DNA of 64,000 nucleotides. It comes from an uncultured Clostridium sp. (GTDB taxonomy: Bacteria; Bacillota; Clostridia; TANB77; CAG-508). A model generated the notes under the pieces. The model worked only from the letters and a program-made list of their open reading frames with translations, was not told the origin of the DNA and did no database searches. Location: NCBI GenBank assembly GCA_945919455.1, contig CAMEJH010000001.1, forward strand, positions 20,184 to 84,183, written 5' to 3'. The position numbers and the translations under genes were made by a program. Shown here piece by piece: positions 4,643-62,702 of the stretch; the stretch's first letter is position 1, and every line of letters begins with the position of its first letter.

Positions 4643-4719
4643 GGCGAAGTAGCTCAGTTGGCTAGAGCATTCGGTTCATACCCGACAGGTCGGCGGTTCG
4701 AATCCACCCTTCGCTACCA
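4643..4719 (+). tRNA. tRNA-Met (anticodon CAU), elongator type, CCA encoded
   Basis: Acceptor GGCGAAG, D arm GCTC-AGTTGGCTA-GAGC, anticodon loop TTCATAC, T arm GGTTCGAATCC, then CTTCGCT-A-CCA. Resembles Bacillus-type elongator tRNA-Met. It lacks the C1:A72 mismatch and 3xGC anticodon stem of an initiator. A lysidine-modified tRNA-Ile2 cannot be fully excluded from sequence alone. Confidence 0.85.
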
Positions 4720-4828: not shown

Positions 4829-6073
4829 CTATCTTTCATTTTCTTCAATAATTTGCTTATTAATTACCTCTGAGTTCTGTCTTGGCTCTAATTTTCTATA
4901 TTTTCCATTATTAGATAATTCATTAATAAAATTATTCCTTCGACTATTTAAACTAGAACCATTATTTTCTTCTTGTTCTCTAGCAGGAGGTAAAACATTT
5001 AATTGTTTTATAACAAAACTTTTTACAATTGGAATATTCATTAATGATTCATGTTTCTCAAAAAATCTAGCAACCTTTTGAGCAAATGACAAGTTATTTT
5101 TTTCCTCAGGTATATCAGGTGATACATTATCTTCTGTTATTATCTTATGCTCTATATCTTTAAATTTATTTGATTTAAGTTCATAGCTTTTTCCGTTTAG
5201 TATTTGTTGCATTTCAGATAACATTTCTTGATTTTTTCTATTATTTTCACCAAGGCTTATATTTTGTCCCCTTGTAACTACTAATTTTTTCATTACTTCT
5301 TGAAATCTGTTATAACTTTGTTCACCTGTTTTTATATCTTTTCCTATTGATTCTATATAAGCTTGTTTAAACTGTTGCTCGTCTGAATTCCATGCAGCTT
5401 GAATAATTGACTTTTCATCTACTTTTTCGACTAACATATATATTGCCTTTGTTTCTGCTTGATATGTTTCTATTTCATCAGGATGTTTTCCTTCAATTCT
5501 ACTTGCAATATAGTTTACTATAGCTTCAATGTTATTGTTATTGCCACCAATTTGTCTATATTCTCCAGATAAATAATCTCTAGCTGTTTCAGAAAAAACA
5601 TGCTTTTCTCCTATACCATATTCATTTTTTATGGTATAGGCTGAATGTGTTAATTCATGTATTAATGTGCTTTTTATATTTGATCTTCTTCTTTGAATAT
5701 CTTGTAATAACTTTTGTTTATCTGATTCTGTATATAAATTCCACAGTTTTTTATCTGTTTCAGACAATTCTAAATCGGATTCATCAAAATAAATAAAAAT
5801 TTCATTTACATCAGTATTGTCTGCAATTCTTCCTTTGTATTCTCCTAGTTCTCCATTTAGTGCTTTTTCATAACTAACAAAGGTTATTTTGTCTAAATTA
5901 TCTTCTAACCTTTTAAACAAATCTTCTGCTGAAATAACATCTCCATATAATTCTATATGCCCTTCAATAAATTCAGTTATACATTCTTGTATAAAAGGAT
6001 TTTCAAAATGTTTATTTTCGCAAAATTCTTTAATTTTATTTTTTAATCCTTGTTTATCTAAACTTTTTTCCAT
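4829..6073 (-). CDS. Hypothetical cytoplasmic protein with a single HExxH zinc-metallopeptidase-like motif (414 aa)
   Basis: Long ORF with no signal peptide or TM segment. LIHELTHSAY with H139/E140/H143. The remainder is Lys/Glu/Asn-rich and matches no family I can name. Confidence 0.55.
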   Translation of the reverse strand: MEKSLDKQGLKNKIKEFCENKHFENPFIQECITEFIEGHIELYGDVISAEDLFKRLEDNLDKITFVSYEKALNGELGEYKGRIADNTDVNEIFIYFDESDLELSETDKKLWNLYTESDKQKLLQDIQRRRSNIKSTLIHELTHSAYTIKNEYGIGEKHVFSETARDYLSGEYRQIGGNNNNIEAIVNYIASRIEGKHPDEIETYQAETKAIYMLVEKVDEKSIIQAAWNSDEQQFKQAYIESIGKDIKTGEQSYNRFQEVMKKLVVTRGQNISLGENNRKNQEMLSEMQQILNGKSYELKSNKFKDIEHKIITEDNVSPDIPEEKNNLSFAQKVARFFEKHESLMNIPIVKSFVIKQLNVLPPAREQEENNGSSLNSRRNNFINELSNNGKYRKLEPRQNSEVINKQIIEENER

Positions 6074-19862: not shown

Positions 19863-21269
19863 ATGAAAGAAAAAATAAAAAATTCAATTAATAATATAAC
19901 GGACATTATATTGTGTAGAGCATCAAAAGAAACGTTTTATAAATATGAAAAACAATTATTATTTTTATCGTTATTTATATTAATGTTTTATTATATGGTA
20001 ATATTTAGATTTAATGATTTAGGATTAGTTGCTACATTTTCTTGGCTATTATATCCATTTTTTATAGCGCTATATATACCATTAATTCATAGTGCATTTT
20101 ACCATATAAAAAATAAAGAATTTAAAATAAAATTAATAGACATAGCATTTGTAATTTATATAATATTTTGTATAATTGCAACAATATTTTCAGAAACACC
20201 ATACAATTCAATATTTGGAAATGGAATTAGAAATGAAGGTATATTCACAATTATATTTTATTTCTTAGTATATTTGTTAGGAAGAAACATTGTAAACAAA
20301 GATAACATACTAGAATTAATAAACTTTATTTTTATTTTTGGAATAGTACAGGTGATTGCTGGATTATTTCAATCATATTATACATGGAATTCTTATTTTG
20401 ATGAAATGGCCTATGGATATGCAAGTAATCCAAATATGTTTGGATTATTGATGGGAATGCTACTTACAATAGCAGTTGGATTATATTTTAATGAAAATGA
20501 ACATATTAACAAATATAAATATTTTTATCTAGTTTGTATTATATTATTTTATACTGGTTTAGTATTAGCAGAATCAGCTGGACCATTCTTTTCATTTATA
20601 GGAATGCTAGGAATAATGTTTATTTACTATATAATAAAAAAGGTAAAAGTAAAGAAAATGCTATTAATTTTGCTAATTTTTATAGTACTATTTCCAATAA
20701 TCCAATTTACCAATAGGGCTGCTAATGAATACTATTTAAGAGATGCCGAATATAAGACATATATAACAAACAACAACACAGATTATTCAAAATTATATAC
20801 AGATGTTATTACTATAATAAATAAAATAATTCCAAAGAAAAATACAGAAACAGAAGAAAATACTAGTAATACTCAAAACGATGATACAAAAAGAACAATA
20901 GATAATGGAAGAATTGCTGAATGGAAGCTTGTTATAAAAGAAGTAAAGAAAAATTGGAAAAATGGAGTAGGATTAGATTGCTTAAATATTTATTATAATG
21001 GAAGAGGATATTGGGAGATTCTAGATAAAGCACATAACCAATATTTAGATATACTAGTTAGTATAGGAGTGTTTGGATGTATTACATATTTAACAATGAT
21101 GATAATTGTAACATTAAAAGGTATAAAAAATAAAAATGCCATATCAAAAACAATATTTTTTGGCTTTTTATATTATTCAATTGCAATATTTGTTAACATA
21201 AGTACACCATTTGTAGCAATATATTATTATATAATAGTGGGATTAATAATTGGTCTTTGTGAAAAATGA
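19863..21269 (+). CDS. O-antigen ligase family (Wzy_C domain) polytopic membrane protein
   Basis: Many hydrophobic helices. Extracytoplasmic loop motif NGRIAEWKLV..NGVGLD..DKAHNQYLDILVSIGVFG, typical of the WaaL/PglL/PilO/Wzy family. The track start 19812 lies inside the upstream hairpin, so ATG 19863 is preferred. Confidence 0.7.
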   Translation: MKEKIKNSINNITDIILCRASKETFYKYEKQLLFLSLFILMFYYMVIFRFNDLGLVATFSWLLYPFFIALYIPLIHSAFYHIKNKEFKIKLIDIAFVIYIIFCIIATIFSETPYNSIFGNGIRNEGIFTIIFYFLVYLLGRNIVNKDNILELINFIFIFGIVQVIAGLFQSYYTWNSYFDEMAYGYASNPNMFGLLMGMLLTIAVGLYFNENEHINKYKYFYLVCIILFYTGLVLAESAGPFFSFIGMLGIMFIYYIIKKVKVKKMLLILLIFIVLFPIIQFTNRAANEYYLRDAEYKTYITNNNTDYSKLYTDVITIINKIIPKKNTETEENTSNTQNDDTKRTIDNGRIAEWKLVIKEVKKNWKNGVGLDCLNIYYNGRGYWEILDKAHNQYLDILVSIGVFGCITYLTMMIIVTLKGIKNKNAISKTIFFGFLYYSIAIFVNISTPFVAIYYYIIVGLIIGLCEK

Positions 21270-21283
21270 AAATAAATTCAAAA

Positions 21284-21312
21284 AAATAGCAAGTAAAGCC
21301 TTGCTATTTTTT
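21284..21312 (+). terminator. Rho-independent terminator after the Wzy_C gene
   Basis: aaatagcaag-taaagc-cttgctattt followed by TTT. Confidence 0.7.
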
Positions 21313-21363
21313 GATTTGCATAGTAAAATATACTCAGAAAAAAAGTCGAAGGGAGAGACTATT

Positions 21364-23670
21364 TTGAAAAAGGAAAATAAGGAACTAGAACTATCAAAAA
21401 AATTGGAATATATAGGATTAAATTTAGATGAAATACCAGAAACACTAAAATTAGTAGAAGACTTACAATTTAAGCCAAATGTAGGACTTGATGAAAAAAA
21501 ATACAGACAATATAGATTTGTGTCTCCTAAAGAAATAGAAATATTATTATCACCAACAAATAGATTAGATGATGTAAAAGAAAAATACTCAAAAGCAAGC
21601 CCATTAGTATCTTATTTAATCCCAAACAATGAGGAAAATGCTGAAAGATGTGAAATATTTAAAAATATGCTAAGAGAAGTTAAAATTGAAGAAATTGAAA
21701 AAATAGAGCAAGATCAACAGGCATTGAATAAAAAGATTCCATTTAAAGTAAGATATCCAGGAAACTATTTATGGCAGATATATTATTCTTCAGCAAGTAA
21801 CAAATATTTTATGATTGTACCAACTGAAGATAAAGATTACTCAACATTTTTTTATGTTCTAAAGAAACAAATAGAAAAGAAAAAAGCAGGAAAAGTATTT
21901 GTACCAATATGTAATGCAGACTATTCAAAAGAATTATTGAATAAAACAGAAATACAAAGCTTAGAGAACTATTTATGGCTATTTACAAAAGATTGGCCTT
22001 CAATATATGAAGTATATGATAAAAATGAAAAAGTAAGCTTACAAATAGTTGGAACAACAGAAGTATATGGAAAAATAAAATCAGAGTATAAAGTAAAACT
22101 TTCAAACAAAATTGAAGCAACAAAATTTTTTAAATTAGTAAAAGCACTATTTATATTGCAATCAGAATTACCAAATTATTATAAATTTGATACACAAATA
22201 GATAAACAAGGAAGTCTAGAATTCTACTATGAAGGACAATTGCTACAATATGATGATTTAAGTGATTGGGTAAATGATCAATACAAAAAATTATTAGAAA
22301 TTCAAAAAAAATCTACAAAAGAAAATTCAGAATTAAAAGAAAAATTAAATAAATTGAAAAATCAATCAGAAGAATTAGAAATGGAATATTTGTCTAAAGA
22401 AAAACAAATATCAACATTTTTAGAATGCAAAAAAACCTTTTTTGGCAAAGTAAAATACTTTTTCAAATATAGTGGAAAAAAATCAAAAAGAAAAGAAGAA
22501 AAGCCAAAAGAAGTTAAGCAAGAAAAAGTTAAAATTGAAAAAGAAGAAGAAATAGACGAAACATTAAAAAAACAATACACCTTAGATGAATTACTAGAAA
22601 AAGGGAAAAAAGCTAGTGAAAAAGAAACAGAATTAAAAAACACTAAAATGGATATAAATGCTTTAAAATTAAAAAATGTAAATCTAGTAAAGAAAATAGA
22701 AAATGCAACAGCATTTATAGATGAGATAGATAGTCATAAAAAGAGCATATTTGAATTCTGGAAATATAGTAATAAAGATGAAGTACAAGCTCTAGAAGAA
22801 GGCGAAGAAGAACCTGTAAATGTAAAGCCACATTCAAAAGTATTTGACTATGAAGAAGATTTTGACGAATTTGGAACAACAATGGACAAAATACAAAGAG
22901 ATATTTTGTCAAAAGAAGAATTAGATAGCATATACTTAACAACAACAAATCAAATAGAAATAATGAATAAATTAAAAACAAATACCACAGAGCCAAAAGA
23001 ATTAGACAAATGGCTAAAACAAATAAAAACAGATCTAAAAAATGAAAAAGACATGACAGAAGAAGAGGTTGTAGATATATTCGGAGGACTATCAGAAGAT
23101 ACTAGAAAAGTAAAAAAATTGGCTAATAAATCTCACAGAGAACAACCAAAAAATAAATATTCAATATTAAAAATATCAAAGTCTATAAAAACAGTAGATT
23201 ATAAAGTTGCGCTGAACAATGCTATAAGAACTATAGATAAAGCAATAAACAAAAATCAATTAGGACAGGAAATTTCAGCATATGAATGGACTGAGGAGGA
23301 AAATATAGATCCTAATAAGATTAATATATTTAATCTAGATCCTGAAAAGGAAATAGAAGAAGCATTAAAAGCAACAGAGAATACAAAAATTAATTTATAT
23401 AAAATGAATTTAAATAAAGGAATTAATGCAATAGCATTTTCAAATTGTGTTTATTTTGATAATCAGAACAAAACATTGCCTTTAGGAATGGATAAAGATA
23501 CTAGAATATTAACAAAAATATTAGATACAGATATACAACTAAATAGTAAAAAAACTGTAAGAGTTGGAAGATTAGAAGATGAAAAAGACGAGGCTTCTAA
23601 ATTGATTATAAAAACAATAAATATATTAGAATATACTGTAAAACCAATAGAAGAGAATACAGAAAAATAA
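21364..23670 (+). CDS. Large orphan cytoplasmic protein with central Lys/Glu-rich coiled-coil region (~769 aa)
   Basis: TTG 21364 lies 6 nt after GGGAGAG. The ORF-track extension back to 21250 runs through the upstream terminator. No TM or signal peptide. The central part (..ELKEKLNKLKNQSEELEMEYLSKEKQ..KRKEEKPKEVKQEKVKIEKEEE..) looks coiled-coil. No family recognised. Its stop is 11 nt before era. Confidence 0.6.
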   Translation: MKKENKELELSKKLEYIGLNLDEIPETLKLVEDLQFKPNVGLDEKKYRQYRFVSPKEIEILLSPTNRLDDVKEKYSKASPLVSYLIPNNEENAERCEIFKNMLREVKIEEIEKIEQDQQALNKKIPFKVRYPGNYLWQIYYSSASNKYFMIVPTEDKDYSTFFYVLKKQIEKKKAGKVFVPICNADYSKELLNKTEIQSLENYLWLFTKDWPSIYEVYDKNEKVSLQIVGTTEVYGKIKSEYKVKLSNKIEATKFFKLVKALFILQSELPNYYKFDTQIDKQGSLEFYYEGQLLQYDDLSDWVNDQYKKLLEIQKKSTKENSELKEKLNKLKNQSEELEMEYLSKEKQISTFLECKKTFFGKVKYFFKYSGKKSKRKEEKPKEVKQEKVKIEKEEEIDETLKKQYTLDELLEKGKKASEKETELKNTKMDINALKLKNVNLVKKIENATAFIDEIDSHKKSIFEFWKYSNKDEVQALEEGEEEPVNVKPHSKVFDYEEDFDEFGTTMDKIQRDILSKEELDSIYLTTTNQIEIMNKLKTNTTEPKELDKWLKQIKTDLKNEKDMTEEEVVDIFGGLSEDTRKVKKLANKSHREQPKNKYSILKISKSIKTVDYKVALNNAIRTIDKAINKNQLGQEISAYEWTEEENIDPNKINIFNLDPEKEIEEALKATENTKINLYKMNLNKGINAIAFSNCVYFDNQNKTLPLGMDKDTRILTKILDTDIQLNSKKTVRVGRLEDEKDEASKLIIKTINILEYTVKPIEENTEK

Positions 23671-24584: not shown

Positions 24585-24597
24585 TTCAATAATAATA

Positions 24598-24692
24598 AAA
24601 AATTTTAAAATATAACTATTTCGTAGCCGAAACATATCTAGGGTCTTCGCGTAGGTCTCGGCTTTACTCAATAGTGATATTTGAAAATTTTT
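24598..24692 (+). repeat. Structured palindromic intergenic element, copy A (divergent)
   Basis: The outer arms aaaaattttaaaatataactatt / aatagtgatatttgaaaattttt pair at 21 of 23 positions. The core reads ..gtagccgaaacatatctagggtcttcgcgtaggtctcggctttac... Starts 13 nt after the era stop. Confidence 0.85.
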
Positions 24693-24752
24693 AATTATTA
24701 ATATGAATAAATTGTCCAAAATTGCAAAAGATAGAATTAAGGAAGTGAGCTT

Positions 24753-43501: not shown

Positions 43502-44682
43502 TGAATACTTTAAAAGAAAGAGAAAAAATAGAAGAAAACGAAGGAATAATAGAAAAAAAGAAAAGCAAAAATAGAGATAAATTTTGGGACATTGTCAAAG
43601 GAATAGGAATAATTAGTATAGTTATAGGACATGTAACAATTAATGATATAAAAGAATTTGTTTATACATATCACTTAATAATTTTTTTCCTTGTTGCAGC
43701 TTATTTTTATAATGAAAAGAAATATGGAGATGAACCATTTAAAAATGTTGGGCAAAGGATAAAATCAACTTGGACCAAATATGTATTTTATGCAATGATA
43801 TTAATATTATCTCATAACTTCTTTGTCGAATATCATTTTTATGAACCTCAAATTGTAAAATATAATAATTTTAATGAGATAATAGTTCCATTATTAAATA
43901 CAATTACTTTTAAGTGTAGTGAAATGTTTGGAGGAGCACTATGGTTTGTCCCAACTTTACTTATAACTATAAGTTTATTTGGTGGAATTATATATGTATC
44001 TAGAAAGTTCAGTAAGAAATTTTGTATTAAAGTAAAGAAAAATAAAGAAACAATAGAAAAATATGTAAAATACGTGGTTATCTTAATTTTTACAATATTA
44101 TTTGGTGGATTAGGAGTATTTTTAAATGAAAATTGGTTGTCTTTAAGTTATCATATGCATACATCATTTTTAGTAATTCCAATTTGCACATTAGGATATT
44201 TTATAAGAGAATATATTGATAAAATAAGAAAAATAAAAAAATGGTATGTTTTAATTCCTGTAATGATATTGTCAACTGAAATTTTGATATATGTAATAAA
44301 GCAAGGAATGAAAATAGAATTATCAAAAGAGATGATTATAAATGGATATATGTTTTATATTGTATCTTTTGTTGGAGTATGTTTTTGCTTATCATTAGCA
44401 GGCATAATAGAGAAAATTCCAATAATAAAAACAATAATAGAATTATTAGGTAAACACTCATTTGCTATAATGGCTTTACATTTTGCATGTGCAAAAGGGG
44501 TGGATGTAATTTATTCAAAAATAATAGGTGAGACAAATGTAGAAGTAATATCAAAATGGGTAACAGCATATCCAGAAAAATTATGGGTATTATATGTATT
44601 CGTTGGATGTTTAATACCACTAATTTTTTCAATGATATTAGAAAAAATAAAAAGAATAGGAGAAAAAAATGGAGAACACTAA
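43501..44682 (+). CDS. Acyltransferase family 3 membrane protein (glycan O-acetyltransferase-like)
   Basis: FWDIVKGIGIISIVIGHV N-terminal motif and ~10 hydrophobic segments. Confidence 0.7.
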   Translation: MNTLKEREKIEENEGIIEKKKSKNRDKFWDIVKGIGIISIVIGHVTINDIKEFVYTYHLIIFFLVAAYFYNEKKYGDEPFKNVGQRIKSTWTKYVFYAMILILSHNFFVEYHFYEPQIVKYNNFNEIIVPLLNTITFKCSEMFGGALWFVPTLLITISLFGGIIYVSRKFSKKFCIKVKKNKETIEKYVKYVVILIFTILFGGLGVFLNENWLSLSYHMHTSFLVIPICTLGYFIREYIDKIRKIKKWYVLIPVMILSTEILIYVIKQGMKIELSKEMIINGYMFYIVSFVGVCFCLSLAGIIEKIPIIKTIIELLGKHSFAIMALHFACAKGVDVIYSKIIGETNVEVISKWVTAYPEKLWVLYVFVGCLIPLIFSMILEKIKRIGEKNGEH

Positions 44683-45712
44683 TATAAAACTTTCAATAGT
44701 AGCGGCTGTATATAATCTAGAAAAATATCTTCCAAGATGTTTAGATGCATTGGTAAATCAAACAATGCAAGATATAGAAATATTATGTGTAGATGATGGA
44801 TCAACTGATTCTGCACCACAGATAATAGAGGATTATCAAAAAAAATATCCTGACAAAATAAAAGTTTTCCATAAAGAAAATGGTGGAGAGTTTACTACAA
44901 GAAATTATGGATTAGAAAGGGCTCAAGGTGAATATGTAACATTTGTGGATACAGATGACTATGTTGAACCTAATTGGGCAGAAAAATTATATAATGCAGC
45001 AAAAGAAAATGATGCAGATTTAGCTGTTTGCGGTTTTGAAAGAATAGACTTAGCGACTAATAAGGTTGTGGCAACTAATATGACTAACTTTGGAAATACA
45101 GTAAAAGAAATAGATCCAAAAGATGATTATTTGTTATTTATAAATCCGGCTCCTTGGAATAAAGTTTATAAAAGAGAAAAAATAAAAGATTTGAGATTTT
45201 TGCCATTTAGAGGGTTTAATGATACTATGTTTTTAGCAAGTTGTTATACAAGAATAAATAAAATAGCATTTGTACCAGATGTATTATATCATTATTTTTT
45301 AAGATATGATTCTCAAATACACACAGTAAATGAACAAGATGTTAAGAATTTGAAAAAATATTTGCTTGAAGTAAAAGATTTATACATAAAATCAGGTAAA
45401 TATGAAGAAATGAAATATATATTAGATACATTTGCGTTTTTACACTTAGGTACATCTGTAATGTATAGAGTGTCTTATGATGAATCAGTAAATATGAAAC
45501 AAATGCTAAAAGATACAATAAAATATCTTGATGAAAATTTCTCTAATTGGAGAAAATCACCATTTTTAAAATTGGGATACTCATTTAAAAAAGGGTTTAA
45601 ACACATCGCTTTATGGGGAGTTTCTTTGTTTTATAAATGGGGAATACCAATGGTGTATATTAAGGTGTATCGCTTTTTAGTTGATAAGTTAAAAATTGAT
45701 ATTAAGTTTTAA
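44669..45712 (+). CDS. Glycosyltransferase family 2
   Basis: LSIVAAVYNLEKYLPRCLDALVNQT..CVDDGSTDSA..FVDTDD. Confidence 0.75.
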   Translation: MENTNIKLSIVAAVYNLEKYLPRCLDALVNQTMQDIEILCVDDGSTDSAPQIIEDYQKKYPDKIKVFHKENGGEFTTRNYGLERAQGEYVTFVDTDDYVEPNWAEKLYNAAKENDADLAVCGFERIDLATNKVVATNMTNFGNTVKEIDPKDDYLLFINPAPWNKVYKREKIKDLRFLPFRGFNDTMFLASCYTRINKIAFVPDVLYHYFLRYDSQIHTVNEQDVKNLKKYLLEVKDLYIKSGKYEEMKYILDTFAFLHLGTSVMYRVSYDESVNMKQMLKDTIKYLDENFSNWRKSPFLKLGYSFKKGFKHIALWGVSLFYKWGIPMVYIKVYRFLVDKLKIDIKF

Positions 45713-45778
45713 TAGTTATGAAGTCAAAACATAGCTAGGGTCTTCCTATGGGTCTTGAATTTATTTAATAGTTATATA
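45710..45778 (+). repeat. Structured palindromic element, copy B (degenerate, left arm missing, overlaps the stop codon of the GT2 gene)
   Basis: The core aagtcaaaacatagctagggtcttcctatgggtcttga is identical to copy C. The right arm aatagttatatata is present. Confidence 0.8.
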
Positions 45779-45876
45779 TATGAAATCTTAATATATAACT
45801 ATTTCAAAGTCAAAACATAGCTAGGGTCTTCCTATGGGTCTTGACTTATTCAATAGTTATATATTAAGATTTCATA
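45779..45876 (+). repeat. Structured palindromic element, copy C (best preserved)
   Basis: The outer arms tatgaaatcttaatatataactatt (45779-45803) and aatagttatatattaagatttcata (45852-45876) are perfect 25-bp reverse complements. The inner stem is aagtcaa/ttgactt. The apical part is catagctagggtcttcctatggg. Confidence 0.9.
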
Positions 45877-45913
45877 TAAGAAAATAATAAATAATGAAGA
45901 AAGGGAATGTAGT

Positions 45914-46891
45914 ATGAAAATTGGAGTAGTAATTGTAACATATAATAGATTAGATAAACTAAAATTAGCGTTAGAAAGTTATGAAAAGCAAGTACTAAAA
46001 CCAAAATACATATTAGTAGTTAATAATAATAGTACAGATGGAACATATGATTTTTTGGAAAGATGGAAAGAAAATAGATCTGAAATAGAAAAAAGAGTAG
46101 TAAATCTTACACAAAATACAGGAGGAAGTGGGGGATTTTACGAGGGATTAAAACATAGTTTAGAATTAGATGCTGATTGGATATGGGTTGCAGATGATGA
46201 TGCATATCCAAAAGAAAATGCATTTAAAATAGCGGAACATTATATAAGTACACACGAAAATTCTAGTGAAAATATTTCTGCAATTTGTGGAACTGTATTA
46301 AAAAGTGATGGAGAAACAATAGATTGCTCACATAGAAGAAAAATATATACAACACTATTTAATAGAATTGCACAACCATATTCAAAACCAAAAGATTATG
46401 AACAAGAAGAATTTGAGATAAATGGATTTTCTTATGTTGGAACTATGATAAATAAAGAAAAATTAAAACAAACAGAGTTAACCAAAAAAGACTATTTTAT
46501 ATATTATGATGATACTGAACATAGCTATAGATTATCAAAATTAGGAAAAATAGTTTGTATACCATCTATAAAAGTAGTTCATGATGCACCTCATAGTGAA
46601 ATGAAAGAAATTGTGAAATGGAAATTATATTATTTAGTAAGAAATACATTAGATTTTATAAGAAATAATTTTGATGAAAAATATTTTAAAGAACAATGTT
46701 TTGAAGTACCATTCAAATTTAAAGTGGCAGTATTTTTATTTGGAAAAGACAAAAAATATGGATTCCAAATGATAAATGAAGCTGTTAAAGATGCAAAAAT
46801 AGGAAAAACAGGATTACATGAAATTTATAAGCCTGGGTGGAGCCCTGACAAAATAGAAGAAAGGCAAGAAAATGAAAAAGAGTATCGCTAA
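45914..46891 (+). CDS. Glycosyltransferase family 2 (rhamnosyl-/galactofuranosyl-transferase-like subclass)
   Basis: IGVVIVTYNRLDKLKLALESYEKQ..VVNNNSTDGT..VADDDAYP. Confidence 0.7.
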   Translation: MKIGVVIVTYNRLDKLKLALESYEKQVLKPKYILVVNNNSTDGTYDFLERWKENRSEIEKRVVNLTQNTGGSGGFYEGLKHSLELDADWIWVADDDAYPKENAFKIAEHYISTHENSSENISAICGTVLKSDGETIDCSHRRKIYTTLFNRIAQPYSKPKDYEQEEFEINGFSYVGTMINKEKLKQTELTKKDYFIYYDDTEHSYRLSKLGKIVCIPSIKVVHDAPHSEMKEIVKWKLYYLVRNTLDFIRNNFDEKYFKEQCFEVPFKFKVAVFLFGKDKKYGFQMINEAVKDAKIGKTGLHEIYKPGWSPDKIEERQENEKEYR

Positions 46892-52955: not shown

Positions 52956-54812
52956 ATGAAAAAACTAAAAATTATTTTAAGTACAATCCTAGTATTAATG
53001 TTTTGTGTTTTTGTAGGACAAGTATATGCAGAAGAAAACATAGATGTAATAGAAGCACAAAATACTCCAATAGCAGAGGTTGAGGTAAAATACGAATATA
53101 AAGAAGAAACAAATACAGTAATAGTAACTATGATATCAGATATAGAATTACAAGATACAAAAATATTATGGAAATTAAGTGAAGACAAAAAACAATATAC
53201 ATTTGAATTTTCAGATAATACAACATATACTACAAATGTAGTAGACATATATGGAAATATTATACCAGTACATATAAATGTAACAGATGTAGTTAATAAA
53301 ATTGCAAATGTTGAAGTAAAATATAAATATCAAAAAGATACAAATACAGTAATAGTAACAATGATATCAGATATAGAATTACAAGATACAAAAATATCAT
53401 GGAAATTAAGTGAAGACAAAAAACAATATACATTTGAATTTTCAGATAATACAACATATACTACAAATGTAGTAGACATATATGGAAATATTATACCAGT
53501 ACATATAAATGTAACAGATGTAGTTAATAAAATTGCAAATGTTGAAGTAAAATATAAATATCAAAAAGATACAAATACAGTAATAGCAACAATTATATCA
53601 AATATGGAGTTACAAAATACAAAAGTATCATGGAAATTAAGCGAAAATAAAAAACAATATACATTTGAATTTTCAAATAATACAAAATATACAACAAATG
53701 TAGTAGATAGGTTTGGAAATGTAATACCAGTATTAATAGACATAAACAAAATAGATGAAAGTCCAGCAAAAGTTAAAGTAGAATATGAATATAAAGAAGA
53801 TACAAATACAGTAATAGCAACAATGGTGTCAAATAGAGAGCTACAAAATACAAAAGTATCATGGAAATTGAGTGATGATAAAAAACAATACACATTTGAA
53901 TTTACAAATAATACAAAATATACAACAAATGTAGTAGACAGATTTGGAAATATAATACCAGTAGAGATAAATGTAGTAAAAGTAGATGATCAAGGACCAG
54001 AAATAAGTATAAAATATGAATATAGCGAAGATAAAACTCAATGCACTGTAAGAGTAATTTCAAACGAAGAATTAAAACCAAAAATTTCACCAGAATGGGT
54101 TTTAAGTGAGGATAAAAAAGAACTTACAATTATTTTTAAAAATAATCAAAATTATGACACTGTTTTTTATGATAAATATGGAAATGGAACAAGAGCACAT
54201 ATGGATGTATTTTTTAATATTACAGGAATTGATGTATCAAAACATAATGGAAAGATAGATTGGCAAAAGGTAAAAAATGCAGGAATTGAATTTGCAATAA
54301 TAAGAGTAGGATACGGACAAGATATTAGTTCGCAAGATGATGCAATGTTTGAATATAATATTAGTGAATGTGAAAGATTAGGAATTCCATATGGAGTTTA
54401 TTTGTATTCATATGCATTAAATACGGAAAATGCCTCATCAGAAGCAGACCATATGCTAAGATTAATAAAAGGTCACAATCCTAAATATGGTATATGGATT
54501 GATCTAGAAGATGATAGTTATAAAGTAAACAATGGTATGCCAAGTAATGAAACATTTGTTGAAATAGCAGTAACATTTTGTGAAAAAATGATACAAAATG
54601 GATACAAAGATGTAGGAATTTATGCGAATTTAGAATGGTGGAATAATAGAATTAATAGCCCTAAATTAGATAAATACGATAAATGGGTTGCACAATGGAA
54701 TGACAAATGTACATATCAAAAAGAATATGTTATGTGGCAATATACATCAAAAGGACAAGTTGATGGAATTTCTGGAAATGTTGATATGAATAAATATTAT
54801 AGAAATAAATAG
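52956..54812 (+). CDS. Secreted GH25 muramidase (lysozyme) with five N-terminal 77-aa repeat modules
   Basis: GGAGG RBS. Signal peptide MKKLKIILSTILVLMFCVFVGQVYA. Five tandem modules. C-terminal GH25 signature GIDVSKHNGKIDWQKVKNAGIEFAIIRVGYG..MWQYTSKGQVDGISGNVDMN. Confidence 0.85.
   Translation: MKKLKIILSTILVLMFCVFVGQVYAEENIDVIEAQNTPIAEVEVKYEYKEETNTVIVTMISDIELQDTKILWKLSEDKKQYTFEFSDNTTYTTNVVDIYGNIIPVHINVTDVVNKIANVEVKYKYQKDTNTVIVTMISDIELQDTKISWKLSEDKKQYTFEFSDNTTYTTNVVDIYGNIIPVHINVTDVVNKIANVEVKYKYQKDTNTVIATIISNMELQNTKVSWKLSENKKQYTFEFSNNTKYTTNVVDRFGNVIPVLIDINKIDESPAKVKVEYEYKEDTNTVIATMVSNRELQNTKVSWKLSDDKKQYTFEFTNNTKYTTNVVDRFGNIIPVEINVVKVDDQGPEISIKYEYSEDKTQCTVRVISNEELKPKISPEWVLSEDKKELTIIFKNNQNYDTVFYDKYGNGTRAHMDVFFNITGIDVSKHNGKIDWQKVKNAGIEFAIIRVGYGQDISSQDDAMFEYNISECERLGIPYGVYLYSYALNTENASSEADHMLRLIKGHNPKYGIWIDLEDDSYKVNNGMPSNETFVEIAVTFCEKMIQNGYKDVGIYANLEWWNNRINSPKLDKYDKWVAQWNDKCTYQKEYVMWQYTSKGQVDGISGNVDMNKYYRNK
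53079..54233 (+). repeat. Five tandem 231-nt (77-aa) coding repeats
   Basis: Units start at 53079, 53310, 53541, 53772 and 54003 (VEVKY.Y..DTNTVI.T..S..ELQ.TK.SWKLS.DKKQYTFEF..NT.YTTNVVD..GN.IPV.I). Positions 53168-53355 are letter-for-letter identical to 53399-53586. Confidence 0.9.
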
Positions 54813-54820
54813 GAGAAAAC

Positions 54821-57361
54821 ATGAAAAGATTAATTAAAGTAGTAATTGCTCTTATTTTATCATTACTTTTCTTAGGAGTTAATATATCAAATGCAACAGA
54901 TGATAAAATGGAACAAACAATAGTAGAAGTTTCATATAAATACAAAGAAGATACAAATACAGTAATAGCAACAATAAAATCAAATAATGAACTAAAAAAT
55001 ACAAAAAAAACATGGAAGCTAAGTGAAGATAAAAAACAATATACATTTGAATTTGGAGATAATACAACATATATGTCTAGTGTAGTAGACAAATTTGGAA
55101 ACACAATACCAGTCTTGATAAATGTAACACAAATAGATGAAAGCCCAGCAAAAATAAAAGTTTCATATGACTATAATAAAGATACAAATACAGTTATGAC
55201 AACAATGACATCAAATAGAGAATTACAAAATACAAAAGTATCATGGAAATTAAGTGAAGACAAAAAACAATATACATTTGAATTTGGAGATAATACTAAA
55301 TATGTTACAAATGTAGTAGATAGATTTGGAAATGTAATTCCAGTATTAATAAATGTAACTGATGTAGACGTAACTCCTGCAAAAGTAATAGTATCATATA
55401 AGTACAAAGAAGACACAAATACGGTAATAGCAACAATGACATCAAATAGAGAATTGCAGAATACAAAAATTTCATGGAAACTAAGTGAAGATAAAAAGCA
55501 ATATATATTTGAATTTGGAGATAATACCAAATATACTACAAGTGTAGTAGATAGATTTGGAAATGTAATTCCAGTATTAATAAATGTAACTGATGTAGAT
55601 GAAACACCAACAAAAGTAGAAGTATCATATGAATATAAGTCAGAAACAAATACAGTAATAGCAACAATGATAGCAAGTAGAGAACTACGAGATACAAAAG
55701 TATCATGGAAATTAAGTGAAGATAAGAAAAAATATACATTTGAATTTGGAAATAATACAACATATATGTCAAGTGTAGTAGACAAATTTGGAAAAACAAT
55801 ACCAGTCTTGATAAATGTAACACAAATAGATGATAAAGGTCCTAAAATAGAAATAGAATATAAATACAGTGAAAATGCAGTTACTTTACTTCTACATTCA
55901 AATGAAAAAATGGTTGATACTAATACAGATTGGAGTTTAAGTGATGATGGATTAATATATGAGAAAACTTTTTATGAGGATCAAGACTATATTTTACAAG
56001 TAAAAGATGTTTATGGAAATAAAACAAACGTAGAAATTTACATAGATTACTTTTTTGAGATAATAACAGAAAAAGGAACATATGGTGTAAGTGGAGCTAA
56101 AGTTAATGGTGTAAATGGAGGCTCAGATTTAGAGTATTATAGATTTGGTAGTGGAGAAAATGTATTGTTTGCAACATTTTGTGTACATGGATATGAAGAT
56201 TCTTGGGATAGAGATGGAGAAGTTTTAGTCAATATTGCGAATGATTTTTATAATAAGTTAATTAAAGATCAGGACAAGAGGTTAGCAAAAAATTGGACAA
56301 TATATATTCTTAAAGAAGTAAATCCTGACGGAAGAAGATTAGGATATACAAATTATGGACCAGGAAGAACAACTTTATATAGTAAAGTTGGAAAAGGAAT
56401 AGATTTAAATAGATCTTGGCAAACAAGCAGTGAATATAAAATTTATACAAGTAATAGAAATTATAATGGAACTGAAGGATTTCAAGCATATGAAGCAGAG
56501 TATTTAAGAGATTTTTTATTAAGTCATAAATCTCAAAATGGAAAAACCGTTTTAGTAGACTTACATGGATGGGAAAATCAATTAATAGGTGATGAAGAAA
56601 TCTGTAAATACTATAAAGAACAATACACAAGTTGTAGAACAACTAATTATGGAAAATATGGAACTCAATATATGATAACATGGGGAAGAGAAATATTAGG
56701 GGCTAAAGTAGCATTAGTTGAACTACCATTAGCAGCTAATCAAGCAGAAGTTAATAGCATGGGATTATCAGAAAAATACATTGATGCGACATTAGAAATG
56801 TTAAAAAATGAAAAAACTAGTATTAATACTAAAAAGTTAGCTAAAAAAACTTTATCATTATATGATAATTCAAGTATTAATTATAAAATTGCATTTTCAG
56901 GTATGATAAATGGTGCAAAACCAAGTTATGAGGAAATAGATTTTATATACAACGATAATAAGCTAAATAAAAATGGAATATGGATAAATCCTAATGATAA
57001 AGAAAAAATATTGAAATTTTTAAATAACTGTTCAGAATTAAATAATAAATATTATATTGATGAAAATAATTATCTAAATATAAATAAAAATACAAATGCT
57101 ACTGAAAAAGACAACAAGATAGAAAAATTAATAAATGGAGAGAAAAAATATCTATTTAATATATCAAGTATATGTTATATGCTAGACACAGTTACAGGTC
57201 AAATAGTAGATAATCCATATAATGAATTAGATAGATATCAAACTTATGAGTATTTTAAGAATGAAGATGAAATGCTAATATTTATTACAGAGAATGAACA
57301 AAAAATATATACAGACATTGAAATTTTTAATAGTATTATGTATTTATTAGATATAGTTTAA
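54821..57361 (+). CDS. Secreted M14-family zinc carboxypeptidase-like peptidoglycan hydrolase with five copies of the same 77-aa module
   Basis: Signal peptide MKRLIKVVIALILSLLFLGVNISNA. Five modules homologous to those of the preceding gene. M14 motifs VHGYEDS (HxxE), NPDGRR, DLNRSW and VDLHGW. Long Asn/Lys-rich C-terminal region. Confidence 0.75.
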   Translation: MKRLIKVVIALILSLLFLGVNISNATDDKMEQTIVEVSYKYKEDTNTVIATIKSNNELKNTKKTWKLSEDKKQYTFEFGDNTTYMSSVVDKFGNTIPVLINVTQIDESPAKIKVSYDYNKDTNTVMTTMTSNRELQNTKVSWKLSEDKKQYTFEFGDNTKYVTNVVDRFGNVIPVLINVTDVDVTPAKVIVSYKYKEDTNTVIATMTSNRELQNTKISWKLSEDKKQYIFEFGDNTKYTTSVVDRFGNVIPVLINVTDVDETPTKVEVSYEYKSETNTVIATMIASRELRDTKVSWKLSEDKKKYTFEFGNNTTYMSSVVDKFGKTIPVLINVTQIDDKGPKIEIEYKYSENAVTLLLHSNEKMVDTNTDWSLSDDGLIYEKTFYEDQDYILQVKDVYGNKTNVEIYIDYFFEIITEKGTYGVSGAKVNGVNGGSDLEYYRFGSGENVLFATFCVHGYEDSWDRDGEVLVNIANDFYNKLIKDQDKRLAKNWTIYILKEVNPDGRRLGYTNYGPGRTTLYSKVGKGIDLNRSWQTSSEYKIYTSNRNYNGTEGFQAYEAEYLRDFLLSHKSQNGKTVLVDLHGWENQLIGDEEICKYYKEQYTSCRTTNYGKYGTQYMITWGREILGAKVALVELPLAANQAEVNSMGLSEKYIDATLEMLKNEKTSINTKKLAKKTLSLYDNSSINYKIAFSGMINGAKPSYEEIDFIYNDNKLNKNGIWINPNDKEKILKFLNNCSELNNKYYIDENNYLNINKNTNATEKDNKIEKLINGEKKYLFNISSICYMLDTVTGQIVDNPYNELDRYQTYEYFKNEDEMLIFITENEQKIYTDIEIFNSIMYLLDIV
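54923..56077 (+). repeat. Five tandem 231-nt (77-aa) coding repeats, same family as 53079-54233
   Basis: VEVSYKYKEDTNTVIAT..ELKNTKKTWKLSEDKKQYTFEFGDNTTYMSSVVDKFGNTIPVLINV and four further units; the last is divergent. Confidence 0.85.
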
Positions 57362-58528: not shown

Positions 58529-60019
58529 TTGAGAAAAAAGATAATATGTATTATTATAGTAATATGTCTTTTATTAGCATTTGGTGCTACTGCTACAATT
58601 GATTGGCTATATGAGACATTTGGTCACTTATCAATGGACGAAATAATATTTCATATAAAAGTACCTATAGAAGGATCTAATACAGATATAATATTTATAT
58701 TTGCCAAAGAATGTTTATGGAAAGTATTATTACCAACTATAATAATATCATTTGTACTAATTTATCCAATGGTAAAAGATCTAAAAATTATAAATGATAA
58801 AATACATACTTCAGAAAGAAAAAGAACAATAGCGGTTAGTTTATGCTTAGCAATGGCTATTTTAATAGTAAGTATTGTAAAGATTATAAAAACAACAGAC
58901 ATAAAAGATTATATAGAAGATCAAATGGATCATTCAAATTTTATTGCAAATGAATATGTAAATCCACAAAATACTGCAATACAGTTTTCTGATAATAAAA
59001 GAAATCTTATATATATTTTTTTAGAATCAATGGAAACAACATATTATTCTGTCGAAGAAGGTGGACTATCTAAAGATAATTTAATACCAGAAATAGCACA
59101 ACTTGCTAAAGAAAATATTGACTTTTCATATACAGAACAATTGGGAGGAGCAAATGTTTTAACTGGTACTAGTTGGACTGTTGGTGCAATGTCTGCACAA
59201 ACAGCAGGAGTACCACTAAAATTAAAAATAGATAATAATGCATTAGGAGAATATAGTACTTTTTTAGGAGGAGCATATAGTATAGGACAAATTCTACAAA
59301 ATAATGGATATCATAATTTTTTATTATTAGGTTCTGATGCAACATTTGGTGGAAGAAAAAAATTGTTTGAACAACATGGAAATTATGAAATATGGGATTT
59401 TGAATCTGCTATGCAAGAAAGAAGAGTTTCAGAGAAAATTTGGTGGGGATATTCTGATAATTTACTATTTGAATTTGCAAAAGAAAAAATATTAAAATTA
59501 GCTAATCAAGATGAACCATTTAATTTTACAATGTTAACTGCAGATACGCATTTTCCAGATGGATACCAATGTAGTGATTGTGAAAATAAATGGGATGAAC
59601 AATATAAAAATGTGATATCATGTTCAAGTAAACAAGTAGGAGAATTTGTTAATTGGATTAAAAAACAAGACTTTTATGATAATACAACAATAGTTATAGC
59701 AGGAGATCATTTAACAATGCAATCAAATTTTTTTGAGTTAGAAGAAGGACAAGATTATCAAAAAAAAGTAGTAAGTATTGTAATAAATCCAGCAGTAGAA
59801 GTAACTAATACAAAAAATAGAGAGTATTCAACATTTGATTTATACCCTACAACCTTAGCAGCTTTAGGAGCAGAAATAGAAGGAAATAAACTTGGTTTAG
59901 GTACTAATTTGTTTTCTGAAGAAGAAACTTTAATAGAAAAATATGGGATAGAATATGTTAATAATGAACTTAAGAAAAATTCAAGATTTTATGATAATAA
60001 TATATTGATCTCAAAATAG
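58529..60019 (+). CDS. Sulfatase-superfamily membrane enzyme (LtaS/phosphoglycerol-transferase-like)
   Basis: TTG start 6 nt after AAGGAG. N-terminal hydrophobic helices, then an extracellular alkaline-phosphatase-fold region (IFLESMETTY.., TADTHFPDGY, IAGDHL). Shorter than classical LtaS. Confidence 0.6.
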   Translation: MRKKIICIIIVICLLLAFGATATIDWLYETFGHLSMDEIIFHIKVPIEGSNTDIIFIFAKECLWKVLLPTIIISFVLIYPMVKDLKIINDKIHTSERKRTIAVSLCLAMAILIVSIVKIIKTTDIKDYIEDQMDHSNFIANEYVNPQNTAIQFSDNKRNLIYIFLESMETTYYSVEEGGLSKDNLIPEIAQLAKENIDFSYTEQLGGANVLTGTSWTVGAMSAQTAGVPLKLKIDNNALGEYSTFLGGAYSIGQILQNNGYHNFLLLGSDATFGGRKKLFEQHGNYEIWDFESAMQERRVSEKIWWGYSDNLLFEFAKEKILKLANQDEPFNFTMLTADTHFPDGYQCSDCENKWDEQYKNVISCSSKQVGEFVNWIKKQDFYDNTTIVIAGDHLTMQSNFFELEEGQDYQKKVVSIVINPAVEVTNTKNREYSTFDLYPTTLAALGAEIEGNKLGLGTNLFSEEETLIEKYGIEYVNNELKKNSRFYDNNILISK

Positions 60020-60024
60020 TTGTA

Positions 60025-60123
60025 TTTTCAATTCTAAATATATAACTATTTCATGTCAAAAACATATCTGGGGTCTTCCTATGTGTCTTTGACATTCAAT
60101 AGTGATATATTTAGAATTGAAAA
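60025..60123 (+). repeat. Structured palindromic element, copy D
   Basis: The outer arms ttttcaattctaaatatataactatt / aatagtgatatatttagaattgaaaa pair at 25 of 26 bp. The core is tgtcaaaaacatatctggggtcttcctatgtgtctttgaca. Starts 5 nt after the stop of the LtaS-like gene. Confidence 0.9.
60089..60117 (+). promoter_or_regulatory. Promoter-like sequence embedded in the right half of element copy D
   Basis: TTGACA (60089-60094, the right arm of the inner stem), 17 nt spacer, TAGAAT (60112-60117). It lies 35 nt upstream of ATG 60153. Confidence 0.35.
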
Positions 60124-60152
60124 ACAAATAAATAGAGAGAAAGGAGTAATAT

Positions 60153-61091
60153 ATGGATAAAATTTCAGTAATTGTTTCATGTTATAATGAAGAAAAAGCA
60201 TTACCTCTATTTTATGAAGAAATGGAAAGAGTAAGAAAACAAGATTTTGAAAATATAGCAGAATTTGAATATATATTTGTTAATGATGGATCCAAAGACA
60301 ATACATTAAATGAAATAAAAGAATTGCGTCAAAATGATAGTAAGGTAAGGTATATATCATTTTCAAGAAATTTTGGGAAAGAAGCTGCAATGTTAGCTGG
60401 ATTAGAAGCATCAACAGGAAATTTAGTTACACTAATGGATGCTGATTTGCAAGATCCACCAGCATTATTAAAGCAAATGTATGATGCAATAAAAAATGAA
60501 GGATATGATACTGTAGGAACTAGAAGAGTAACAAGAAAGGGAGAACCTCCAATAAGAAGTTTTTTTGCAAGAATGTTTTATAAAATTATTAATAAAATGT
60601 CAAGCATAGAAATGGTAGATGGTGCAAGAGACTATAGATTAATGAAAAGAAAGGTTGTAGATGCTATAATTTCATTAAAAGAGTATAATAGATATTCTAA
60701 AGGGCTATTTAGTTTTGTTGGTTTTGACACAAAGTGGATAGAATATGAAAATGTAGAAAGAGTGGCAGGAGAGACCAAGTGGTCATTCTGGAAGTTATTT
60801 AAATATGCATTAGAAGGAATAACAGCATTTTCAACAACCCCATTAATACTATCATCATTAATAGGTTTAATATTTTGTATAGTTGCATTTGTAGCTATAA
60901 TATTCATTATTGTTAAAACATTAATTTTTGGAGATCCAACATCTGGTTGGCCATCATTAGCTTGTATTATAGTATTTGTAAGTGGAATTCAATTGTTTAC
61001 AATTGGAATAATAGGACAATACTTATCAAAAACATATTTAGAAGTAAAGAAAAGACCTATTTATATAGTTAAGGAAACAGAAAAAGAGTAG
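60153..61091 (+). CDS. GT2 undecaprenyl-phosphate glycosyltransferase (GtrB/CsbB-like) with two C-terminal TM helices
   Basis: ISVIVSCYNEEKALPLFYEEM..FVNDGSKDNT..FSRNFGKEAAMLAGLEASTGNLVTLMDADLQDPP, plus C-terminal helices. Confidence 0.85.
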   Translation: MDKISVIVSCYNEEKALPLFYEEMERVRKQDFENIAEFEYIFVNDGSKDNTLNEIKELRQNDSKVRYISFSRNFGKEAAMLAGLEASTGNLVTLMDADLQDPPALLKQMYDAIKNEGYDTVGTRRVTRKGEPPIRSFFARMFYKIINKMSSIEMVDGARDYRLMKRKVVDAIISLKEYNRYSKGLFSFVGFDTKWIEYENVERVAGETKWSFWKLFKYALEGITAFSTTPLILSSLIGLIFCIVAFVAIIFIIVKTLIFGDPTSGWPSLACIIVFVSGIQLFTIGIIGQYLSKTYLEVKKRPIYIVKETEKE

Positions 61092-61104
61092 TTATATAAT
61101 GATA

Positions 61105-61203
61105 CATAAAAGTTAATATATAACTATTTCATGGTCAAAACATAGCTGGGGGCTTCCTATAGGTCTTGACCTTATTAAAATAGTTATATATTAACTTTTT
61201 ATG
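61105..61203 (+). repeat. Structured palindromic element, copy E
   Basis: The outer arms cataaaagttaatatataactatt / aatagttatatattaactttttatg are complementary with one bulged base. The core is ggtcaaaacatagctgggggcttcctataggtcttgacc. Starts 13 nt after the GtrB-like stop. Confidence 0.9.
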
Positions 61204-61240
61204 ATTATTAATAATAAAAAATTACAAGAAAGGAATAAAA

Positions 61241-61618
61241 ATGAAAGTAAGGAGAAAAGATATAATGAAGATTATAATGATAGTTATATATTTAATATTT
61301 ACAGTTTCAGGATTAATACTAATGAAAAAGGGGGGAAATGCCGGAAAAATAACAACTGGGTCAGGAGAATTAGGATTTAGTATTAGTTGGATAAGTGCTT
61401 TAGGATTTGTATGCTATATAATAAGCTTTTTGTTATTTACAAGAATAATAATGATGTTTGAAAATGTAAGCTATATTTCACCAATATGTAATGGTATAGC
61501 ACAAGCGTGTATTGTTATTGCATCAATTATATTTTTAAAAGAAGAATATTCAATAAATACTTTAGGAGGAGCTGCACTAATAATTGCGGGTGTAATAATA
61601 ATGAATTTAAAAAGGTAA
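61241..61618 (+). CDS. Small 4-TM membrane protein (half-EamA/SMR-like; possible lipid-linked sugar flippase)
   Basis: Four hydrophobic segments, the last being LGGAALIIAGVIIMNLK as in DMT/EamA proteins. An alternative ATG at 61268 lies downstream of AAGGAG. Confidence 0.45.
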   Translation: MKVRRKDIMKIIMIVIYLIFTVSGLILMKKGGNAGKITTGSGELGFSISWISALGFVCYIISFLLFTRIIMMFENVSYISPICNGIAQACIVIASIIFLKEEYSINTLGGAALIIAGVIIMNLKR

Positions 61619-62638: not shown

Positions 62639-62650
62639 AAAATGTTATAA

Positions 62651-62690
62651 AAATAGCACATATAACTTAATTAGTTACTATGTGCTATTT
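62651..62690. terminator. Bidirectional terminator hairpin between mreB and the convergent adhesin gene
   Basis: aaatagcacata (62651-62662) pairs with tatgtgctattt (62679-62690) in a perfect 12-bp stem. T-rich after it on the + strand and A-rich before it. Confidence 0.65.
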
Positions 62691-62702
62691 GTTTTGTATC
62701 AG

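Follow-up and report, generated by a model that had tools for sequence, protein, structure and literature searches.

A non-coding foldback repeat with a conserved apex in an uncultured gut Clostridium and its relatives

Five hairpin repeats among glycosylation and cell-wall genes

The window analyzed here, a 64-kb stretch of an uncultured Clostridium sp. genome (64,000 nt; contig CAMEJH010000001.1, positions 20,184 to 84,183), carries five copies, designated A to E, of a palindromic repeat. According to Pfam, the order of the genes around them is Era–A–YqzL-like/RecO, GT2–B–C–GT2, and sulfatase/LtaS-like–D–GT2–E–small membrane open reading frame (ORF)–MreB, in agreement with the gene context (era, GT2, and LtaS-like) proposed earlier from the letters of the DNA only (hereafter, the sequence-only reading). 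Copies B–E are located within or just downstream of the GT2 glycosylation region, a very large array of paralogous GT2 glycosyltransferase genes that extends over approximately 8400–47000 and shares N-terminal DNA motifs (D2, D3, D5, D7, and D8).

A covariance model (R1), built from an alignment (A2) of 46 non-redundant family members and run unfiltered over all 64 kb, yielded exactly five matches on the + strand, four of which correspond to full copies (90–103 bits) and one to a truncated copy (47 bits), with E-values from 1e-17 to 1e-20. The only other R1 matches above 19 bits in the window were the palindromic shadows of these five copies on the minus strand (35–51 bits). A repeat search of the window also grouped the five + strand copies as one family (D4), and the 25-nt core, with up to three mismatches allowed, was matched three times in the window, as compared to 0.00 times expected from shuffled sequences. 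The model confirms the five same-orientation copies of the sequence-only reading.

Copy A (approximately 24586–24713, + strand; R1 match 24598–24695, 90.4 bits) is a full hairpin with era upstream (stop at 24584) and the yqzL-like and recO genes downstream, and its apical module at 24630–24660 on the + strand reads AAACATATCTAGGGTCTTCGCGTAGGTCTC. The truncated copy B (45700–45778, + strand; R1 match 45708–45776, 47.2 bits, model positions 14–81 only) overlaps the TAA stop (45710–45712) of a GT2 gene (44669–45712). Its core and 3' arm are intact, and AATAGTTAT, a sequence of the 3'-arm type in direct orientation, stands in place of the 5' arm. Abutting B, copy C (45779–45880, + strand; R1 match 45781–45877, 103.3 bits; apex at 45813–45843, +) is a full hairpin whose outer stem pairs perfectly over 25 bp and whose inner stem is AGTCAA/TTGACT, and lies 34 nt upstream of the GT2 gene at 45914–46891. 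Copy D (60019–60130, + strand; R1 match 60028–60123, 91.8 bits; apex at 60060–60090, +) is 112 nt long, counting one AAATA repeat, and has the termini GTT...AAC. It begins inside the stop codon at 60017–60019, where its first G converts the TAA stop of the host gene to TAG. Copy E (approximately 61092–61222, + strand; R1 match 61106–61204, 99.4 bits), whose apex at 61138–61168 (+) contains GGGGCTTC, is a full hairpin starting right after the TAG stop (61089–61091) of the GT2 gene at 60153–61091, and is followed by a small membrane ORF (61241–61618). The positions after stop codons are those that had been pointed out previously. The elements are 95–130 nt long in the window and approximately 280–390 nt in the Hadza metagenome-assembled genome (MAG) CAKOXV, and contain no ORF.

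When folded as RNA and compared to shuffled sequences, the full copies gave z values of −4.3 (A), −9.9 (C, −39.1 kcal/mol), −11.3 (D), and −6.5 (E), and copy B folded no better than the shuffled sequences (z = +0.73), because its 5' arm is replaced. As single-stranded DNA (ssDNA), the four full copies gave z values from −5.9 (A) to −10.2 (C), with −6.5 for E. For copy D, the only one folded on both strands, the two strands folded equally well (z = −10.0 and −9.5). The hairpins are longer than the lengths given previously, with A, D, and E extending over the spans described above.

Pfam scans of 20 of the window's ORFs revealed no transposase or integrase, and the earlier statement that the window lacks a transposase stands for these ORFs. 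A search of the whole window against Rfam at the gathering thresholds returned only tRNA-Met, and searches at E ≤ 10 with slices of D, E, and the permuted variant described below returned only sub-threshold miRNA-hairpin models and no ribozyme, the Rfam 15 families considered including the hammerhead, twister, pistol, hatchet, and hairpin ribozymes. When the literature was searched in full text for the core segment GCTRGGGTCTTC, in four versions of 12 nt written as DNA and RNA, only unrelated primers were returned. The element, with no Rfam match, as had been surmised, and nothing in the searchable literature, is previously uncatalogued.

A conserved apex on compensated arms

From the outside inwards, the element consists of arms with copy-specific sequence, a partly conserved block, (T/A)ATATATAANTATT, an internal loop that is small and asymmetric, an inner stem of 5–7 bp that varies freely (GTCAA/TTGAC, GGCAA/TTGCC, GAACA/TGTTC, and GCCGA/TCGGC), and a conserved, asymmetric apex of approximately 30 nt with the consensus AAACATAGCT-RGGGTCTTC-N4-6-RGGTCTT (also written AAACATAGCTRGGGTCTTC..GGTCTT). 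The arms are approximately 35–50 bp long in the window and up to approximately 180 bp elsewhere. There is no conservation of the termini: A, C, D, and E each have different outer arms, none of which recurs in other loci.

RNAalifold predicted 29 pairs for A2, of which 21 exhibited changes on both sides. Over the 46 copies, 95.9% of the cells were paired, as compared to 39–49% when the partner column was slid, and 237 double-sided changes were counted; the observed values were reached by none of 500 shuffles (0/500). One-sided (G–U) states were present in only approximately 4 cells and AU<->UA flips were common, and in a wobble test the isolated mismatches among approximately 2,400 pairs comprised 10 of the G:T type and 10 of the A:C type. 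The arms therefore act as a DNA palindrome, with any change in one arm matched by a change in its partner, which sets them apart from a typical selected RNA helix. This strict Watson–Crick covariation, together with the approximately 2:1 orientation of the copies described below, argues for the maintenance of the palindrome at the DNA level, rather than for a selected mRNA helix. The complementarity of the arms is probably kept by DNA-level templating, either quasipalindrome correction or the copying of one arm from the other.

Stems that have diverged widely still carry an exact apex, and further copies that came along with the same loci depart from the core at one or two positions. In addition, a second hairpin family carries the apex module in a circularly permuted form, [CAAAACC]-T-GGGTCTT-[GCAAC-TTCG-GTTGC]-AAAACATAGCTAGGGTCTTCCTAT-CC-[GGTTTTG], with compensatory changes in both helices. 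The members of this family (L021, L047, L053, L070, L074 from the sheep MAG JAFWKV, and L149) have conserved, GC-rich outer ends, GTCCTGCCACGTGG...CCACGGTCGCGGAC. The mouse MAG CAOPQH (L008 and L058) exhibits a third layout, without the second GGGTCTT, which is present in L008 as two tandem copies 164 nt apart.

Such a centre-conserved, end-variable, and permutable design is not expected of a site for an end-binding transposase, and suggests that the apex is the recognized or active module. It is a speculative and unlikely extension of this idea that the ~30-nt apex acts as a portable, functional module: as a small RNA or ssDNA motif that is catalytic or recruits a protein, or as the site recognized or nicked in an undescribed mobilization templated by the hairpin, in which one arm would be copied from its partner at each transposition or repair event. 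A portable module of this kind would explain the Watson–Crick, copy-specific arms, the outward decay of similarity between copies (see below), and the permuted sister family together.

Gain, loss, and spread of the element

The sites in the window were compared with those in contigs encoding an MreB identical to that of the window. Site D is filled in the window and in three other contigs (L140–142), and is empty in four (L139, L143, L146, and L147), where the allele reads CTCAAAATA|AATAGAGAG. The comparison of the filled and empty alleles defines a 112-nt insertion between AAATA direct repeats, located at 60014–60018 on the left and 60126–60130 on the right, which represent a candidate 5-bp target-site duplication or microhomology. 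In the empty allele, 21 nt separate the sulfatase-like gene from the GT2 gene, and they contain no palindrome or hairpin. The insertion preserves the stop codon and leaves the downstream ribosome-binding site (RBS) intact, and the GT2 gene stays with or without D. Copies can therefore land in an operon spacer of 21 nt while keeping both the stop codon and the RBS.

At site E, a 92-nt segment (61099–61190, + strand) is absent from all 10 other contigs with the identical MreB. Direct repeats of 10 nt, TAGTTATATA, border it at 61089–61098 and 61181–61190; for these repeats, deletion microhomology is more likely than target duplication. The short allele retains a canonical 3'-arm remnant, TAGTTATATATTAACTTTT, identical to the 3' arms in L005 and L092. 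Because of this remnant, the short allele is most simply explained by a slippage deletion that left a solo arm, and not as a naive site; the alternative is an insertion next to an older remnant.

At site A, the copy is present in relatives with 95–99% Era identity. In sister species, the site has no long palindrome: the relatives at 92% Era identity have a spacer of 31 nt there, which includes a small hairpin unrelated to the element, and those at 90% have a spacer of 11 nt; the whole ~128 nt are absent from both. The inserted unit at A is the whole ~128-nt palindrome, including its arms. Neither flanking GT2 protein of the B/C site was on record in the look-ups of polymorphism at that site.

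These comparisons indicate that the element is gained and lost between strains, that its arms travel along with it, and that no terminator or palindrome is needed as a target. The sequence-only reading had offered a miniature element that targets terminators as one of two options. The miniature, non-coding, multi-copy element is upheld by the strain polymorphism and by the burst described below, but the targeting of terminators is not, as insertion into pre-existing terminator hairpins is ruled out by the empty alleles at D and A.

At the place of copy A, the era–yqzL spacer of the relatives with 92% Era identity (L130 and L131, 2404–2440) contains a short hairpin, ATGCATAATCTATTAATGCAT, followed by TTTT, which is possibly a small terminator and is unrelated to the element.

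A scan with the core pattern, using one genome per species, returned at least 107 loci, and true copies with arms number at least approximately 65, in at least 14 assemblies labeled as uncultured Clostridia. The indicated hosts of the gut samples are human, goat, sheep, mouse, and chicken. The MAGs CAKOXV, JAFWKV, and CALXUT each carry at least approximately 15–18 loci. Matches in other phyla lacked arms and were chance matches, as were all 7 matches in a viral contig collection. The JGI metagenome collection gave 10 matches, of which 4 were real and added nothing new, the element being rare there.

Among the matches listed, all of the true copies are intergenic. The flanking genes are unrelated, ordinary housekeeping genes, and the flanking ORFs are not mirrored. 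All-versus-all clustering of 461 ORFs from 67 loci revealed no recurrent neighbor gene or transposase and yielded only scattered housekeeping families, and no HUH, Rep, or RAYT-like gene was found near any copy in these 67 loci. With respect to the flanking genes, 34 copies are sense, 16 antisense, 7 divergent, and 3 convergent, and the orientation by coding majority is 46 to 23, the CAKOXV copies being mostly antisense. The earlier claim that the core always lies on the transcribed strand is thus correct in the window, but not across the family; under a 2:1 bias, five sense copies out of five have a probability of approximately 0.13. The GC and AT skews (approximately +0.2) track the coding strand in 66 of 69 cases (the window and all Clostridia loci), so that orientation relative to replication is uninformative, and the effects of replication and transcription are inseparable by skew.

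The CAKOXV copies are a recent burst. A repeated unit of approximately 280 bp is present in at least 13 copies that are 89–97% identical. At the loci L011, L020, L026, L051, L052, L054, L055, L067, and L101, this unit lies inside palindromes with arms of 140–180 nt on either side of the core, which in most copies measure approximately 350–390 nt overall. The similarity between copies decays outwards, whereas the arms of each copy stay approximately 80–95% complementary: the inner part is 89–97% identical between copies, and the outer ~50 nt of each arm are nearly copy-specific, still complementary within the copy.

Several other features of the window were observed. An AT-rich hairpin at 62645–62696, between the convergent mreB and VWA-domain genes, scored 18.9 bits with R1 on both strands and is probably a bidirectional terminator, not a member of the family. 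Two sets of four 231-nt (77-aa) tandem repeats, at 53074–54066 and 54918–55910, are located in adjacent cell-wall hydrolase genes, one GH25 lysozyme-like (52956–54812) and the other M14 peptidase-like (54821–57361), and the repeats are 74–100% identical to the reference copy. Two ORFs lack a Pfam match, one at 21250–23670 on the + strand (806 aa) and one at 4829–6073 on the − strand (414 aa), the latter next to the tRNA-Met gene (4643–4719).

Interpretation and comparison with known systems

Taken together, the results favor the interpretation that the five repeats are copies of a non-autonomous, non-coding foldback element, palindromic over its whole length and intergenic, which resembles transposable elements of the miniature inverted-repeat type (MITEs) and ERIC and which proliferates as a selfish element in a lineage of uncultured, low-GC gut Clostridia, with the apex as its recognition module (probability of roughly 0.6). 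The apex, rather than the termini, would be recognized by a trans-acting mobilizing or maintenance machinery, either on the tip of a DNA hairpin or cruciform or on an RNA copy. The copies in the window would be co-transcribed with the glycosylation and cell-wall operons and form double-stranded RNA (dsRNA) hairpins of 25–47 bp; if they influence how mRNA is processed or how stable it is, or act as promoters as in D, this would be a by-product.

Several observations weigh against this interpretation. No autonomous parent or mobilizing gene was found among the window ORFs scanned or near the 67 loci, and the variability of the termini is a further difficulty, since an end-binding transposase would require conserved ends. 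A permuted apex would sooner be met in a functional folded RNA than in a transposase site, and the 2:1 sense bias, with all five window copies sense, leaves room for some selection at the RNA level. The polymorphism at E may be purely a deletion, and the 5-nt AAATA repeat at D, which is the single clean junction, could be chance microhomology. Finally, the core is invariant within the set in part because the loci were fetched by the exact core pattern; the contrast between the exact apex and the diverged stems is not explained by this way of fetching.

Some of the same observations would fit a cis-acting structured RNA selected at each locus, that is, a processing site, a 3' stabilizer, an attenuator or terminator, or an antitermination element, to whose loop a host RNase or RNA-binding protein would attach. 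In the window, each of the five copies has the sense orientation and is placed 25–35 nt upstream of the next RBS, the sense bias persists in the family (34:16), the helices covary strongly, the loop is conserved and recurs in a permuted version with covarying helices, and an A-run and a T-run flank the inner hairpin in A, E, L001, L007, and L039. However, T-runs are present only in some copies, and in copy D the positions of the A- and T-runs are the reverse of those in these copies. A pattern scan detected no intrinsic-terminator pattern at any copy, and the stems are AT-rich with a loop of approximately 20–30 nt, unlike the GC-rich terminator hairpin with its 3–8-nt loop and U-tract. Furthermore, 16 copies are antisense, 7 divergent, and 3 convergent, those of CAKOXV being mostly antisense; G–U states are nearly absent, with no wobble bias; copies are present or absent between strains with identical neighbor genes; the neighbor genes are unrelated; and Rfam gave no match. 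A structured RNA of this type is therefore unlikely, although not negligible, as an account of the family. A dedicated RNA-level role, as the sequence-only reading had put forward (terminator or attenuator, 3' stabilizer, or processing site), finds no support at the family level, in view of the mixed orientation, the lack of wobble bias, the dispensability of the copies, and the missing terminator pattern.

The window copies are certainly positioned for co-transcription, and co-transcription and processing are a plausible side effect. Their predicted stems of 25–47 bp exceed the ~20 bp of near-perfect dsRNA needed for RNase III, of which the transcribed hairpins would likely be substrates. The 3' arm of copy D contains an outward-facing promoter-like site, TTGACA-17-TAGAAT (60089–60117, + strand), with a mirror site on the − strand (60059–60031). 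With 11 of 12 matches, it was at the top of a 20-kb scan, tied with an unrelated site at 51287–51258. An outward promoter as a general property was rejected, as it is strong only in D and weak in C, and the other inner stems (TTGCC and TGTTC) lack TTGAC. Other likenesses were also discarded. The likeness to boxA (GCUCUUUAACAA versus GGUCUUUGACAA) has its matching tail in the inner stem, which is variable, so that it is not conserved across copies, and the same lack of conservation applies to dif/Xer arms, sigma-54 and extracytoplasmic function (ECF) promoters, a Chi-like GCTGGGG, mini-ORFs with a Shine–Dalgarno sequence and ATG on either strand, and a BbsI site (GTCTTC).

It is clearly improbable that hairpin scaffolds carry, in the apex, a small RNA or ssDNA module of a new kind that is catalytic or otherwise autonomous, for example a self-cleaving ribozyme or an HUH replication or nicking origin. 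A module of approximately 24–30 nt is circularly permuted between two unrelated scaffolds, with compensatory changes in the flanking helices, and evolves far more slowly than the stems; hammerhead and twister motifs likewise occur in permuted forms, and the two GGGTCTT direct repeats might be likened to the iterons beside the hairpin in rolling-circle replication (RCR) or CRESS origins. However, no ribozyme or other Rfam match was obtained, even at E ≤ 10 on short slices, no conserved pairing was demonstrable within the apex, the second GGGTCTT is missing from the layout of the mouse MAG, the 67 loci contain no HUH or Rep gene near a copy, and the viral contigs contain no copies. Integron-like attC sites delimiting cassettes, with the GT2 gene 60153–61091 bracketed by D and E, are a very remote prospect and were rejected: the copies are imperfect palindromes of 60–140 nt in the same orientation directly after stops, with one gene between two of them, but the GT2 gene keeps its place whether D is there or not, conservation is in the loop and variation in the stem, which is the reverse of attC, no integrase is among the ORFs scanned, and other copies flank housekeeping genes in either orientation. 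The possibility of chance AT-rich palindromes or an assembly artefact was considered because the genome is very AT-rich and the 13-mer ATATAACTATTTC, with 2 mismatches, gave 25 matches as compared to 16.7 expected. It is refuted by the E-values of 1e-17 to 1e-20, the expectation of zero core matches, the presence of the same element in independent assemblies from many samples and hosts, and the flanking ORFs, which are not mirrored.

The repeat adds a widespread family to the poorly known uncultured Clostridia of human and animal guts. The element may serve as a strain-typing marker, since strains with no other difference here are told apart by D and E, and it is a warning for annotation, as long hairpins in polysaccharide and cell-wall operons can be mobile insertions, rather than regulatory RNAs or terminators. 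The conserved loop, the compensated free arms, and the permuted sister family make it a tractable case for the study of end-independent hairpin spread, and of how long palindromes stay perfect in bacterial genomes.

The element resembles several known repeat systems in part. REP and BIME sequences are multi-copy extragenic palindromes found after stop codons, whose ssDNA hairpins are recognized by the HUH enzyme RAYT (TnpA-REP) and which have secondary effects on mRNA stability. The present copies are also multi-copy extragenic palindromes after stop codons, but REP is approximately 35 nt long and GC-rich, with a conserved 5' GTAG and stem, whereas the element described here is a long AT-rich hairpin with a conserved loop, and no RAYT-like gene is near any copy in the 67 loci. 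The attC sites of integrons combine conserved stem boxes (R''/L''–L'/R') with a loop that varies, and go together with IntI and mobile cassettes. They are likewise structured, imperfect palindromes directly after stops, in one orientation as in the window. They differ in that the conservation is reversed, that no integrase is among the ORFs scanned here, and that the present element is gained and lost without the neighbor gene.

To our knowledge, none of the pneumococcal RUP, BOX, and SPRITE elements or QMITE2 of Coxiella has been reported with a conserved loop common to two scaffolds. These elements cluster, insert into or next to one another, as do B and C, and prefer 3' untranslated regions (UTRs), and SPRITE looks like a terminator (PMC10969869). 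None of them bears a sequence relation to the present element; RUP has IS630-like terminal inverted repeats (TIRs) and BOX is modular. Correia (NEMIS) elements of Neisseria are, similarly, small AT-rich hairpin repeats within transcription units, with strain-dependent presence or absence and outward promoters in some copies, and their stem-loop transcripts, with a long dsRNA stem, are cleaved by RNase III (PMC10969869), which is only predicted here. In contrast to the Correia element, which has conserved 26-bp TIRs, a TA duplication, and an IHF site, the present element has variable termini and a single junction with the 5-nt AAATA.

ERIC (also called IRU) is said, after Hulton and colleagues in 1991, to have a well-conserved central part, as the present element does. 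The present element resembles ERIC and YPAL in being approximately 100–130 nt long, non-coding, and an imperfect palindrome over its whole length. Like ERIC, it is intergenic, often just 3' of genes, in either orientation, and variable in copy number between strains, and ERIC forms co-transcribed hairpins that are able to change mRNA levels (PMC10969869). Only the architecture is alike, as the two are in different phyla (Enterobacteria and Vibrionaceae versus uncultured Clostridia) and share no sequence similarity. The centre of ERIC is a central inverted repeat, whereas here it is an asymmetric, unpaired loop of approximately 30 nt. In contrast to both ERIC and YPAL, the arms vary freely with strict compensation here, and a permuted sister family exists.

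MITEs are AT-rich, located in intergenic regions or 3'-UTRs, give rise to stem-loop transcripts, and insert into one another (PMC10969869). The present element shares with them its small size (less than approximately 400 bp), non-coding nature, and multiple copies, the terminal inverted repeats (the arms are complementary to the ends, and D has the termini GTT...AAC), and the insertion polymorphism of D and E among the contigs with identical MreB. Direct repeats were seen at D (5 nt, AAATA) and at E (10 nt, more likely deletion microhomology), and for A there was no allele close enough to compare. We do not classify the family as bona fide MITEs, because conserved termini shared with a parent insertion sequence were not found among the window ORFs scanned or at the 67 loci, and D alone offers a candidate target duplication. 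The family is best described as a non-autonomous intergenic hairpin repeat of the MITE, ERIC, or Correia type.

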